From: an uncultured Clostridia bacterium
GTDB lineage: Bacteria > Bacillota > Clostridia > UBA1212 > UBA1255
NCBI GenBank assembly: GCA_947625435.1
Contig: CANQOI010000002.1
Coordinates: forward strand, 1,043-65,042
Direction of reading: 5' to 3'
Length of the DNA stretch: 64,000 nt
The notes beneath the pieces were generated by a model, which searched no databases, was not told the origin of the DNA, and worked only from the letters and a program-made list of their open reading frames with translations. A program made the position numbers and the translations under genes. This document shows, one piece after another, positions 829 to 10,200 of the stretch. The first letter of the stretch is position 1; every line of letters begins with the position of its first letter.

Positions 829-1054
829 TATGAATTACGAAAAACAGGCCGCGCCATCTGGCAGCGCGGCCAATTTTGAGGAACAAACGCACAAAACTGT
901 CGACCAAACGGTGCCAGATACCGGTCGCAATGGTGAACACACAGAAGCGGAAATACAGTTTGAACGGGAAATGCGGGAATTTTTGCAGAGCCTTATCAAC
1001 AAAGGCGTCGGGGACTGCGACGATGAAGATGACGAAGGGGAAACGCCGTGTTAG
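829..1054 (+). CDS. small acidic protein (~75 aa; the ORF track extends it to 770); likely partner of the downstream ARH gene
   Basis: RBS aaaggagag lies 6 nt before the ATG at 829; the ATG at 770 has no RBS. Very acidic C-terminus DCDDEDDEGE. Stop overlaps the ARH start (1048). Contains direct-repeat copy A. Confidence 0.45.
936..963 (+). repeat. 28-bp direct-repeat copy A (aacacacagaagcggaaatacagtttga), matched at 10173-10200 with 1 mismatch
   Basis: Base-by-base alignment of the two loci gives 27/28 identity with a constant offset of 9237 bp. Confidence 0.7.
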
Positions 1055-2223
1055 GTGCGCTTATCGGCGATATTGTCGGCTCGGTCTACGAATTTGACAA
1101 TATTAAAACAAAAGATTTTTCTCTGCTCTCGAAAAACAGCCGTTTTACAGACGATTCGGTGATGACACTGGCTGTGGCCGAGGTTTTGCAGCACGGCAAA
1201 ACAGATGACCCGGACGAAATCGTGCGGATTTTTCAAAAATGGGGGCGCGCGTACCCGAACGCCGGCTACGGCGCGTCTTTTGTCCGCTGGGTTTTTTCCG
1301 AAAATCCGCAGCCCTACCACAGCTGCGGCAACGGCGCCGCTATGCGGATCTCGCCCGTAGGATGGTACGCCGACGATGAATCGCAGGTGCGTGACTATGT
1401 CCGCGCCGTCACCTCAGTCACACATGATCATCCGGAGGGGCTCAAAGGCGCGGAGGTTACGGCCATGTGCGTCTATTATGCCCGCCGCGGCCGCTCCAAG
1501 GAATTTATCCGGCAATACGCCTCGCAGTATTACGATTTGTCGTTCGATTACGAGGAACTCCGTCGCAATTATACTCACGGCGCGGAGCTTTGCCAAAACA
1601 CCGTCCCGCAGGCGATCTTCTGCTTTTTGATTTCAAACAGTTTTGAGGACTGCCTGCGCACGACGATCTCGATAGGCGGGGACTGCGACACCACTGCGGC
1701 AATCTCATGCGCCATCGCCGAGGCGTATTATAAGCGCATCGACCGCGACCTGACACTGAGCGCACTCGCCCTTCTGCCGGCCGCAAAGGACGGCTGTGAC
1801 GCAAGAGAGATTCTTTCCCGCTTTGCCGACCGCAAACGGTTTGTGCTCGCGCCGCCCGTCCCGCTGGACGCACGAGCGCTTGAAAAAATCGACCGGACGC
1901 AGATCGTGGCGGTGCAGACGGCACACACCGGCGCGATGGGGCGCCCAGGCGAAACGCATGTCTATTGCGCAGGCGGCGGAGAGCTGTCCGAATATCGTTT
2001 CACACCGACATGTGGGGACGATTCGTCCGCTTTTTCGGAACAGGCGCGGCGGTTGGCGGTAAAATCCCACGGCTTCTGTGAAATTTATATCGGAATGGGA
2101 AACTTTCTGTACTTGCGCAGCGATTTGAAGCCCGCATTTGACGCGGCCGCTTCCGACTTGTCTTTATCGGAACTGTACGTCCGCCACAAGGGAATCTTAT
2201 GGCGGATCCTGGCCGACCGATAG
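1048..2223 (+). CDS. ADP-ribosylglycohydrolase (ARH/DraG) family protein with an extra ~130-aa C-terminal domain of unknown function
   Basis: N-terminal GALIGDIVGSVYEF...FTDDSVMTLAV and a C-terminal GGDCDTTAAISCAIAEAYY motif are typical of the ARH fold (Pfam ADP_ribosyl_GH). GTG start with RBS. Confidence 0.8.
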   Translation: MLGALIGDIVGSVYEFDNIKTKDFSLLSKNSRFTDDSVMTLAVAEVLQHGKTDDPDEIVRIFQKWGRAYPNAGYGASFVRWVFSENPQPYHSCGNGAAMRISPVGWYADDESQVRDYVRAVTSVTHDHPEGLKGAEVTAMCVYYARRGRSKEFIRQYASQYYDLSFDYEELRRNYTHGAELCQNTVPQAIFCFLISNSFEDCLRTTISIGGDCDTTAAISCAIAEAYYKRIDRDLTLSALALLPAAKDGCDAREILSRFADRKRFVLAPPVPLDARALEKIDRTQIVAVQTAHTGAMGRPGETHVYCAGGGELSEYRFTPTCGDDSSAFSEQARRLAVKSHGFCEIYIGMGNFLYLRSDLKPAFDAAASDLSLSELYVRHKGILWRILADR

Positions 2224-2250
2224 GGTTAAATATATAGCTATATATTCAAA

Positions 2251-2290
2251 ACAGCGAGAAAATCAAGCGATTTTCTCGCTGTTTTGTTTG
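2251..2290 (+). terminator. rho-independent terminator of the ARH gene
   Basis: Perfect hairpin cagcgagaaaat...attttctcgctg followed by ttttgttt. Confidence 0.7.
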
Positions 2291-2686
2291 TATGACGGGC
2301 ATGCCTTTGGTCTGTGGTAAAAGCCAACAAGGGACGCAGTTGCCGACGAACCCCAGAGCGATTCCCAAGGTTTGCTCCTTGAAAAACAGGCGAGAAGAAG
2401 GGATAGCTAAATTGTATCCTTACGAACAAAAACCTGATATAAAGGCGAATACAGCAGATAAGTGCGCCAAGAGTCACGAAGTTCAAAAGGCAACCGTGAC
2501 TCGTAGGCGTAAATAATGAGGGGCGTAGCCCCGAGCGCATGACGAAATATCCTTTTTGTGTAGACCTAAAACATATCACAAATATCCCTGTTTTTCATAA
2601 AATCATGATTTCTTCACATTTTCATCCGCTTGCTTCGATGAATTCTTTTTAACATCCATTCTGAAAACATCATATGAGTTCCTCTA

Positions 2687-2977
2687 TTATATGTTTCTTC
2701 TTTTGTATTTTGCATTAGAATAATCCGTTAGCTTTTCCATTCGTTCCTTCAGCGCGTGTATATTTTCAGATGCGAACAAGGCGATCGACACCTTTAATGT
2801 GTTCAATCGGCGGATATATTCCGTCAATTCATTTTTATACTCGTCGTCTACTCCGGCCAACATTTTTTTCAGGTCAGATTCAAATCTTGCGGCGGTAATG
2901 GAAAATTGTTCGGAAAAATCATTTAAAATGCCGCCTGCCGTATTCAAAGAATCCGTTGTGACGTGTATTTTGTCCAT
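2687..2977 (-). CDS. 96-aa all-helical protein; candidate immunity/partner or WXG100-like protein, last gene of the operon
   Basis: Lies 15 nt downstream of the 427-aa gene. Helical heptad-rich sequence with no TM segment. Confidence 0.4.
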   Translation of the reverse strand: MDKIHVTTDSLNTAGGILNDFSEQFSITAARFESDLKKMLAGVDDEYKNELTEYIRRLNTLKVSIALFASENIHALKERMEKLTDYSNAKYKRRNI

Positions 2978-2992
2978 AAATTATCTTCCCCC

Positions 2993-8714: not shown

Positions 8715-8750
8715 GGCAAAAGTCTCCTATTCATGAGGTGATATTCCCGA

Positions 8751-9851
8751 TCAGTGGAAAGCCGATGCAAAAAGTTCAAATTCTTGTTTTAGTTCCTCGT
8801 CGTTATCTATTGCATTTCGCCTCAGATTTGCAACAACGTCAGGCAAGTCTGCGTGTGGATTTTCAGCAATAAAACGTAAAACGGAGTCCAAAAAATTCCG
8901 ACTTAATACTTTGGCTGAAATAATCGATTGGCTAACAGTTTTATAAAATGTAAGCTTTTCATTTTCCAGCTCTTCTGTTGCTGTTACGGTATTTTCTTCG
9001 GATCTTTGAATCAAGACTGTTCTTGATTGCCCTCCATTGGACGGACCTATAACGCCCTTTTCCTCCAACAAATCCACTAGTCGAGAGGCTCGTGAATACC
9101 CAATTCTCATATTCTTTTGCAGCAAGAAAGCGGATGCCATGCCTGCTTCCGTTACAATTTGAACCGCTTGTGAAAACATGGGATCTTCGTTGTCATCTTC
9201 TAATTCAAAGGAAAATAATTCGCTTGCCATTTTAGTGTTTTTCGCTTCTTTGAAAGGAAAATTTGCCGTCATATTCGGCCATACGACGATTTGATATTCA
9301 GAAGCAAACGTTCTGTTGCGAATCAAGTAGAAAAAATCATACGACTTTTGGCATGCAAAGCGAAGAACATCACTAAAATCGACGAATTCCGAAAGCTTTT
9401 GCATTTCTCTGTAACCGCAAGCCCATAAGAGTCCGAATAAATTCAAGTAATGATCTGTCGAATATTTGTGCGCTTCGTTATTGTCAGAATCGGGAGATAA
9501 ATTGACCCTGATTAGTTTTTCGTTCAGCTCCTTTACTCTTCCATCGCCTTCTTCTCCGACAAAATACAGTTGAAAATATCTCCCGAATTTTCGATAAAGC
9601 AAACAACACGCTTCTATGTATTGCCTTACAGGTTCATCGAGGGACGGATTTATTCTTAAAAACTGCACATCAATTTCTTCCGGTACACCAAATTGCCGAG
9701 CCAGACTTGCTCGGCGTTCTTTCAAATTTTGCAAGCATCCATTATAATCGTTGTTAACCTCTTCCAGCCTGGTTTCAAACCGTTCCAGATTTTTGATGTA
9801 TGTTCTGATTTCGCTCTCTAATTGCTCAGTCCAATCTACGCTCATCTTCAA
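8751..9851 (-). CDS. 366-aa protein with an FtsK gamma (winged-helix, KOPS-type DNA-binding) domain in its C-terminal half; N-terminal coiled-coil/unknown
   Basis: DPMFSQAVQIVTEAGMASAFLLQKNMRIGYSRASRLVDLLEEKGVIGPSNGGQSRTVLI aligns closely with the E. coli FtsK gamma segment DPLFDQAVQFVTE...RIGYNRAARIIEQMEAQGIVS. RBS gaggtg. Confidence 0.75.
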   Translation of the reverse strand: MKMSVDWTEQLESEIRTYIKNLERFETRLEEVNNDYNGCLQNLKERRASLARQFGVPEEIDVQFLRINPSLDEPVRQYIEACCLLYRKFGRYFQLYFVGEEGDGRVKELNEKLIRVNLSPDSDNNEAHKYSTDHYLNLFGLLWACGYREMQKLSEFVDFSDVLRFACQKSYDFFYLIRNRTFASEYQIVVWPNMTANFPFKEAKNTKMASELFSFELEDDNEDPMFSQAVQIVTEAGMASAFLLQKNMRIGYSRASRLVDLLEEKGVIGPSNGGQSRTVLIQRSEENTVTATEELENEKLTFYKTVSQSIISAKVLSRNFLDSVLRFIAENPHADLPDVVANLRRNAIDNDEELKQEFELFASAFH

Positions 9852-9985
9852 TCACCTCGAAACAAATCCCACTGTTTTTATTATATCATGTTTACGGCGA
9901 GCAATCAATTATCGCATGCGTTTGAATACCGCAGTATATAAATATGATCAAAATACACTTGCACTTTTATTGTACACATATGTTT

Positions 9986-10001
9986 GTACCGAATTCGGTA
10001 C
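9986..10001. promoter_or_regulatory. 16-bp perfect palindrome gtaccgaattcggtac in the promoter region of the minus-strand operon; candidate operator
   Basis: Exact dyad symmetry, ~135 bp upstream of the first gene. A TACAAT -10-like hexamer lies just downstream on the minus strand. Confidence 0.3.
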
Positions 10002-10172
10002 ATGAAAGAATTTAGAATATCATTAGCATCGGAAACTAAAATTCTTATGAAACAATTAATTGTTCATATATATTTTACAAAAATGCCGCGATGTCTGACA
10101 ACCAAACCAATTGCAAGATGCAATCGCACGGCTTTCCTGACTAAACAGCGCCGAATAGGAGCCACAATGTCA

Positions 10173-10200
10173 AACACACAGAAGCGGAAATACTGTTTGA
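10173..10200 (+). repeat. 28-bp direct-repeat copy B (aacacacagaagcggaaatactgtttga)
   Basis: 27/28 identical to 936-963. Lies in AT-rich non-coding DNA. Confidence 0.7.

Follow-up and report, generated by a model that had tools for sequence, protein, structure and literature searches.

The described systems closest to the locus reported here are gene-targeting integrative elements, gene remnants in variable, defence-island-like regions, and mosaic alleles that arise by ectopic gene conversion. With integrative elements of this type, the locus has in common near-identical direct repeats ~9 kb apart, one of them in an intact gene, with diverged homology beside the core. With gene remnants, it shares an in-frame fragment with a premature stop and no start codon, an abrupt truncation, degraded neighbors, and a low-GC block flanked by conserved genes, and with mosaic alleles, a sharp step in identity that includes synonymous sites, in a hypervariable slot whose boundaries fall at conserved flanks. 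These features lie around a pair of 28-bp direct repeats in a 64,000-nt stretch of contig CANQOI010000002.1 from an uncultured Clostridia bacterium (referred to here as the window, i.e., the whole stretch analyzed). The left repeat lies inside a small acidic gene (A1) that is followed by an ADP-ribosylglycohydrolase (ARH) gene, the start codon of which is the conserved flank in question, and the right repeat lies beyond an FtsK-like operon. In an earlier examination of the letters alone (the sequence-only reading), the repeats had been proposed to be attL/attR-like ends of an inserted cassette or, alternatively, the footprint of a second, deleted copy of the acidic gene. Our results favor the second proposal. 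The right 28-mer is the best-preserved 3' end of a dead A-family gene fragment (A2), i.e., an ordinary genomic scar, and the identity of the two copies probably comes from a recombination tract.

The locus also departs from each of these systems. Unlike gene-targeting integrative elements, it has no recombinase, and its homologous arms lie on the wrong side for the intact copy; its right copy abuts unrelated DNA, and of the bracketed segment one half (ARH) is resident and the other foreign, with foreign DNA extending past the repeat. Unlike other gene remnants, A2 has a mosaic identity (58%, then 96%), which is not the product of simple decay, and is bracketed by a 9-bp inverted repeat. In contrast to typical conversion tracts and mosaic alleles, only 28 nt of the tract survive, the 58% identity of the flank is low for RecA-dependent exchange, and neither the direction nor the partner of the exchange can be determined.

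The two 28-mers are identical at 27 of 28 positions and have the same orientation (both on the plus strand), at the coordinates that the sequence-only reading had given (Table 1). Its statement that the pair cannot be due to chance was upheld: the expectation in 100 dinucleotide-preserving shuffles was 0 matches. The left copy does encode EHTEAEIQFE within A1, and the right copy does lie in noncoding DNA (9852-10260, between the FtsK-gamma and DUF3791 genes). The description of the repeat was, however, incomplete. Similarity extends leftwards of both 28-mers, ungapped, in register, and at a constant offset of 9237. The leftward extension gives a repeat of 62 nt at 77% identity, and the whole ungapped homology of ~125 nt (~840-964 versus 10077-10201) has 83 of 124 nt identical. 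Outside the 28-mer (840-935), 56 of 96 nt (58%) are identical versus a background of 25%, and in the core (936-963) 27 of 28 are. No shared sequence was found 3' of the core, where identity (24%) is that of the background, and the two outer sides of the homology stand at 24 to 26%.

Copies elsewhere were sought in several collections. No third copy of the 28-mer exists in the window with up to 3 mismatches allowed, and a codon-degenerate pattern of it had 0 matches in 185,579 species genomes, the JGI metagenomes, and IMG/VR. An 18-mer core was found in same-species contigs only, and the 28-mer is absent from relatives of the operon (L007, L008, and L022-L027) and of the DUF3791 cassette to its right (L016-L021). 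With only two copies in the window and 0 matches in three public collections, a common multicopy genomic repeat, which the sequence-only reading had named as a circumstance that would tell against it, is ruled out. A megablast search of the first 13.3 kb (1-13.3 kb) against PLSDB and INPHARED returned nothing, which rules out a known plasmid or phage. A transposon target-site duplication is likewise not indicated: the window has no transposase, the repeats abut no coherent element, and 28 nt with diverged arms do not resemble such a duplication.

Table 1. Coordinates of the repeat copies, of A1 and A2, and of the other features of the region in the 64-kb window
Feature	Position(s)	Strand	Basis or remark
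Left 28-mer, AACACACAGAAGCGGAAATACAGTTTGA	936-963	+	Inside A1 (74-aa acidic gene); codes (E)HTEAEIQF(E)
Right 28-mer, AACACACAGAAGCGGAAATACTGTTTGA	10173-10200	+	Last 28 nt of A2 before the breakpoint 10200/10201
A1, intact 74-aa acidic orphan gene	830-1054	+	Translation; stop overlaps the GTG start of ARH
A2, pseudogene fragment homologous to A1 codons 3-45	10073-10201	+	tblastn, E=1.5e-6; codon table
Inverted repeat bracketing A2, 9 bp, perfect: left arm TATATTTTA, right arm TAAAATATA	10069-10077 (left); 10203-10211 (right)		
ADP-ribosylglycohydrolase (ARH) gene	1048-2223	+	Pfam PF03747, 1.5e-38; GTG start
Strong terminator hairpin, 18-bp stem	2247-2286	+	Closes the A1-ARH unit; GC falls directly after
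Group II intron D1-D4 fragment, without intron ORF (open reading frame)	2373-2553	+	Rfam RF02001, 46.8 bits, E=2.7e-8
FtsK-like operon	2687-9851	-	Pfam; gene-by-gene synteny with L007/L008
AT-rich spacer, 30% GC	9852-10072	-	Predicted operon promoter TTGATT-17-TG-TATAAT (9908->9880)
18-bp perfect palindrome, TGTACCGAATTCGGTACA	9985-10002		~135-150 nt upstream of FtsK-gamma start; may be an operator
DUF3791 / 78-aa / DUF3990 / 97-aa cassette, degraded	10261-11248	-	Pfam; 76-90% nt identity to L016-L021
Small Cro/C1-type HTH (helix-turn-helix) gene	11314-11625	+	Pfam HTH_26, 9e-6; right edge of the low-GC block
Start of chromosomal backbone: metallo-beta-lactamase-fold protein, acyl-ACP thioesterase	11622-13266	-	Pfam

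When the A1 protein was searched against the window by tblastn, its residues 3 to 45 aligned with the region around the right 28-mer at 42% amino acid identity, with an in-frame stop in the aligned segment. A2 (~129 bp) is a truncated, disabled pseudogene fragment that corresponds to the first ~45 codons of an A-type gene. It carries a CAA->TAA change in frame at 10142-10144, has TAT in place of ATG and no start in register, and lacks the counterpart of the last 29 codons of A1. Its homology to A1 stops abruptly after ...TTTGA (964/10201), where unrelated DNA is joined at 10200/10201. In the flank, identity is even across codon positions 1, 2, and 3 (55, 59, and 59%), and the changes from A1 to A2 show an excess of GC->AT (21 versus 13), which is the pattern expected of unconstrained decay. 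In-frame homology beyond the repeat, lesions together with gene loss, and substitutions typical of relaxed constraint, i.e., the marks by which a pseudogene is recognized, were thus all found. The alternative that the sequence-only reading had put second is borne out by the register of the homology, the premature TAA, the missing start, and the 3' truncation.

The 28-bp core differs from this flank. The step in identity from 58% to 96% is significant (Fisher's exact test, p=6e-5; permutation test, p=0.002), and all nine third codon positions in the core are identical between the copies. The one further recognizable member of the family, a gene in a relative (L003, described below), matches the core at only 18 of 28 positions. 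The core is therefore best regarded as recently shared DNA, and conservation at the protein level was rejected as the reason for the 28-mer on the same two observations. If A2 were removed, the arms of the inverted repeat around it would join into a perfect palindrome of 18 bp (TATATTTTATAAAATATA); a post hoc estimate puts the probability that such a bracket arises by chance at ~1e-3. A2 and the spacer are identical and collinear in three same-species contigs (L013-L015), and the arrangement is invariant in four strains. Since these strains are 99 to 100% identical throughout, the invariance of A2 and the spacer carries no information.

The exact A1 protein is present on two ENA contigs (L001 and L002). 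Its sole relative among 5.8e9 proteins was P0001, and none further was found among 1.84e9 representatives. Judging from these searches, the A family appears to be private to this lineage, so the origin of A2 would be this same genome or that of a close relative. A1 occupies a slot immediately upstream of ARH. In L003 (GCA_947626485.1), the gene in this slot encodes 226 aa and has an N terminus weakly homologous to A1 (PTEAECEFEKEIRAVLQGLI versus HTEAEIQFEREMREFLQSLI), and ACAGAAGC is the only motif conserved family-wide in A-type genes. In L030-L035, the gene order is 65 aa / 358 aa / 171 aa / ARH. A comparison of L030 with L003 gives 75 to 79% nucleotide identity for ARH, for the 358/361-aa gene, and for the 64/65-aa gene, whereas the slot genes (171 versus 226 aa) have no nucleotide homology, which restarts exactly at the start of ARH. 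The slot upstream of ARH is thus a hypervariable, recombination-prone cassette (74, 171, or 226 aa) beside a conserved ARH gene. A variable slot partner suggests an inhibitor- or immunity-type relationship with ARH.

Some further observations concern this slot. A conserved module of a 64/65-aa gene, a 358/361-aa gene, the slot gene, and ARH, with stops and starts overlapping or adjacent, is present in the window (449-2223), in L003 (7162-10828), and in L030 (1049-4369); the module of the window has no 358-aa gene, and its 64-aa and leucine-rich repeat (LRR) genes are inverted relative to those of L003 and L030. The alternative +1 frame is open in A1 as well as in A2 (876-1097 and 9984-10205, plus strand), with basic, Cys-containing peptides of the form ...NTQKRKY(S/C)L.... 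These open frames are probably a by-product of the acidic-codon composition, and they have no evident ribosome-binding site.

The ARH gene has a GC content of 57% (56 to 59%), within an A1-ARH stretch of 54 to 59%. It is 84% identical at the nucleotide level to that of L003 and 75% identical to that of L030, both of which carry the same module and no FtsK operon. L003 also has the same 64-aa and LRR genes 2.6 kb upstream. Given that ARH is preceded by an A-type gene in relatives that lack the operon (L003 and L030-L035) and that its GC content is 57%, the gene is host-like and resident rather than cargo. Downstream of ARH, its relatives in L003, L005, and L030 are not syntenic with the window. 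A distant ARH-family gene (23% identical to that of the window) lies just upstream of the retron reverse transcriptase (RT) gene of L008 (L008:2-895). ARH genes would then neighbor the operon family in two unrelated arrangements, which may be a coincidence.

The 9.3-kb stretch between the A1-ARH unit and the backbone is a patchwork of degraded foreign modules, assembled piecemeal. It forms a low-GC block (~2290 to ~11620, 40 to 46% GC; 37 to 47% from ~2290 to ~11500) against a backbone of ~50%, and GC content is back at 50 to 55% where the backbone starts. The block starts 1.3 kb after the left copy and runs 1.4 kb past the right copy, and no repeats of at least 11 nt were found at its own edges. 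On the left edge, 87 nt past the ARH terminator, lies the group II intron fragment. The operon that follows encodes an FtsK-gamma protein, a 1,095-aa FtsK/SpoIIIE-like ATPase, four ~90-aa helical proteins (one of which has a weak WXG100 match), and proteins of 427 and 96 aa. Beyond the spacer and A2, the DUF3791 cassette has internal deletions in its DUF3990 and 97-aa genes, and its homology to other cassettes ends ~20 nt before the DUF3791 stop. Intact cassettes (L016-L021) include a tyrosine integrase, an HTH_3 gene, a full 97-aa gene, and a full-length DUF3990 gene; the integrase and HTH_3 genes are absent from the window. These comparisons suggest that the cassette of the window is a small mobile or addiction-type module in decay. 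Protein identity for its 78-aa gene reaches at least 90% across many unrelated contigs, where the cassette stands beside a tyrosine integrase and HTH_3 gene (e.g., L016:8067-11098).

On the basis of the A2 fragment and its setting, we propose that A2 is the remnant of a second A-family gene, which would have been a paralogue or else an allele, older or foreign, of the slot upstream of ARH. It would have been stranded in the low-GC patchwork between the resident A1-ARH unit and the backbone. Its 3' part was lost at 10200/10201, where unrelated DNA was joined, and divergence or decay would have brought its 5' 100 nt down to 58% identity with A1. The 27/28 tract would stem from recombination between A-type sequences: A1 and A2 may have undergone ectopic gene conversion, or the 5' part of A1 may have been replaced by another allele, with a crossover at ~935/936. 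The tract would formerly have been longer on its 3' side, and the truncation would have cut it, so that the end of identity coincides with the end of all homology. The data themselves show that A2 is a fragment, that it is disabled and truncated, that its identity is mosaic, and that it lies in a patchwork; from these we infer both the recombinational origin of the identical tract and this order of events.

Several points weigh against this history. No genome with an intact A2-type gene or an intermediate state was found, and the history is read from one arrangement in four strains. RecA-type conversion is inefficient at 58% identity, which obliges the model to assume that the tract was once longer or more similar or that A1 underwent allelic replacement. 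The 9-bp inverted repeat exactly around A2 is not predicted by it and hints at the insertion of a fragment into a palindrome. A pseudogene old enough for 42% divergence would normally be deleted, and nucleotide-level selection may act on the 28-mer.

The explanation that the sequence-only reading had placed first, namely, that the 28-mers are attL/attR-like cores of a 9.2-kb cassette (the 3' end of A1, ARH, and the operon) moved by a recombinase encoded elsewhere, draws on the near identity of two direct repeats, one of them within a gene, on a sharply bounded core beside diverged arms, which resembles an att core in partially homologous attP and attB sites, and on the low-GC operon inside the bracketed segment. 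We nevertheless consider it very unlikely. In both copies, the homologous arms are found 5' of the core, and the 3' sides have nothing in common, so the copy at the right end is a dead 5' fragment joined to unrelated DNA and not a displaced gene end; the suggested replacement of a 3' gene end fails for this reason, given the 24% identity of the 3' sides. ARH is resident in relatives without the operon and has a host-like or higher GC content, the low-GC block is offset from the repeats at 936 and 10200 on both sides, and the relatives of the operon and of the cassette carry no 28-mer. As the sequence-only reading had itself stated, the window contains no integrase or recombinase: Pfam searches that covered every ORF in 1-13 kb and, in the rest of the 64 kb, those of at least 170 aa returned neither, nor a transposase. 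The att model predicts a recombinase, repeats that mark the limits of one coherent foreign unit, and extra homology that restores the target gene; all three predictions failed. If the repeats were att sites, the empty site would read A1(5')-28mer-TATAAAATATACG (junction TATAAAATATACGCC), and the junction of the circle would read A2(5')-28mer-ACGGGAAATG (ACGGGAAATGCGG). In a more novel reading, the 28-mer would owe its identity at the two positions to being a working site, either a recombination site for the reversible, programmed loss or circularization of the ARH and FtsK-like segment (with the recombinase elsewhere) or a nucleic-acid link through which antisense pairing or a common binding site would tie the expression of A1-ARH to that of the operon; we give this very little credence. 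We conclude that neither copy is an att site and that no function has been demonstrated for either.

The inverted repeat raises a different explanation, in which a double-strand break in the center of the AT palindrome (TATATTTTA/TAAAATATA) was filled with a captured A-type piece, either DNA or cDNA, whose last ~28 nt were templated ectopically from A1 and primed at ACAGAAGC before end joining. Such a capture would account for arms that abut both ends of A2, for homology that runs from near the start codon to a point within the gene and is not accompanied by common DNA upstream or downstream, and for an identical tract that begins near ACAGAAGC and ends exactly at the junction. However, the significance of the bracket is post hoc, and AT-rich 9-mers are common in the spacer (resamples had a mean of 1.6 inverted-repeat pairs); capture does not explain where the 58%-identical part came from; templated filler insertion is poorly documented in bacteria; and the window holds no reverse transcriptase. 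We regard capture as unlikely. Selection for a function of the nucleic acid itself, with the 28-mer kept as a protein-binding site or for antisense pairing (27/28) between minus-strand read-through of the DUF3791 cassette and the A1-ARH mRNA, seems to us quite unlikely. The sharp island of identity, which includes all synonymous positions, the invariance of the spacer and A2 in four strains, and a promoter-like site within A2 on the minus strand (10101->10072) can be cited for it, but the near identity of those strains makes the invariance uninformative, L003 does not conserve the 28-mer, and the 28-mer is neither palindromic nor internally repeated. The predicted promoter of the operon is located downstream of the 28-mer, which is preceded by a terminator-like hairpin on the minus strand, and RNA structure is unremarkable on either strand (z scores of -0.9 to -1.75). 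A structured RNA was rejected on these scores, which are no more extreme than -1.75, and complementarity to a retron noncoding RNA (ncRNA) or to the group II intron fragment was not beyond chance, so that a targeting link with either was also rejected; neither the binding-site nor the antisense reading gains positive support. Diversity-generating retroelements (DGRs) deserve mention, since the ~125-nt imperfect direct repeat, with a coding copy and a noncoding one, resembles their template and variable repeats; the noncoding copy lies near the position of the RT gene in relatives of the operon, and the identical 3' end recalls an initiation-of-mutagenic-homing (IMH) sequence. A template/variable repeat pair linked to that RT was refuted by the substitution spectrum, as mismatches are not adenine specific (A2 has A at 14 of 41, and A1 has A at 10 of 41). 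The RT of the relatives is of the retron type and not the DGR type, the window has no RT, and we assign this explanation next to no probability. Finally, the source is a metagenome-assembled genome (MAG)-type NCBI contig, and no independent contig spans 2238-7161 (L001 ends at 2238), so that the linkage of ARH and the operon rests on the source contig. An assembly artifact or a chimeric join is highly improbable all the same. Same-species ENA contigs match the window at 98.4 to 100% on the left (L001 and L002) and on the right (L013, L014, and L015), both copies with their flanks were recovered independently from three samples, and the repeat is thus not an artifact of assembly; the samples that contain the left contigs also contain the right ones, at similar coverage, and the junction 10200/10201 is identical in L013-L015.

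The operon belongs to a family whose ATPase has ~80 members in MAGs of Clostridia and Bacilli. Its closest loci (L007:650-11507, 74%; L008:1240-12041, 72%) have the same gene order and carry a retron-clade RT directly upstream of the FtsK-gamma gene. The RT matches the PADLOC model RT_Ec107-like (4.7e-114) and also RT_III-A, and has NAxxH, VTG, and YCDD motifs. Upstream of it lies a conserved region of ~190 nt, a candidate ncRNA, with inverted repeats AACCCTTTACAGTA / TACTGTAAAGGGTT at its ends. The operons of L007 and L008 encode the FtsK-gamma protein, an FtsK/EssC-like ATPase of ~1,190 aa, four ~90-aa helical proteins, 436-, 97-, and 141-aa proteins, and a PDZ protein. The window has no RT (tblastn), no such ncRNA (Rfam), and neither the 141-aa nor the PDZ gene. 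More distant relatives of the operon also show no RT, and the loss of an RT from the window therefore cannot be asserted. No relatives of the FtsK-gamma protein were found in viral contigs.

The operon genes at 5427-9851 (minus strand) are mosaic relative to those of L007 and L008. Identity to L007 is 36 to 40% for the FtsK-gamma protein and for residues 1 to 113 of the ATPase but 74% for the ATPase from about residue 205 onwards, and the window ATPase lacks ~90 aa (residues 114 to 204 of the relatives). This pattern indicates a recombination breakpoint inside the ATPase gene. A palindrome (GCACCAAATTTGGTAC) similar to that of the spacer precedes the retron ncRNA of L007 and L008, with a likeness that is marginal (score of 29 versus a 95th percentile of 28 to 30 in shuffles); operator homology between the spacer and the retron promoter region was set aside on this score and is not relied upon.

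With respect to retron defence systems, the likeness of this operon family lies in L007 and L008, its closest members, where the RT and the candidate upstream ncRNA immediately precede the FtsK-gamma gene; the window differs in having neither. By the definition of a retron as an RT with an msr-msd ncRNA, the operon of the window is not a retron; L007 and L008 have such an RT together with a candidate ncRNA. The published classification of retrons recognizes 13 types; FtsK-like effectors are not among them, and FtsK is never mentioned (PMC7736814). The combination of RT, FtsK-gamma protein, large FtsK/EssC-like ATPase, and WXG100-like proteins in L007 and L008 may accordingly be an undescribed retron effector architecture.

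The remainder of the window is chromosomal. Beyond 13266, the backbone carries purH, dapF, a penicillin-binding protein (PBP) gene, cdaA, and other housekeeping genes. The thioesterase has 54% identity to its closest counterpart at the species level ("Ca. Egerieisoma" sp.), with no synteny. Genes for a Tad/type IV-like secretion ATPase (T2SSE), two T2SSF proteins, and an FHA-domain protein at 43053-46869 (minus strand) and a single tRNA gene at 29851-29923 (minus strand) are unrelated to the repeats.

The scar itself matters little. Its lesson is that a long direct repeat is not automatically the boundary of a mobile element; here, the in-frame extension of the homology and the side of the core on which it lies separated a relic from an att site. 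The context is the more interesting by-product. The locus documents a hypervariable slot for a partner gene upstream of ARH and a region downstream of ARH that gathers and erodes foreign modules, and it brings to light a retron-linked family of FtsK-like operons.

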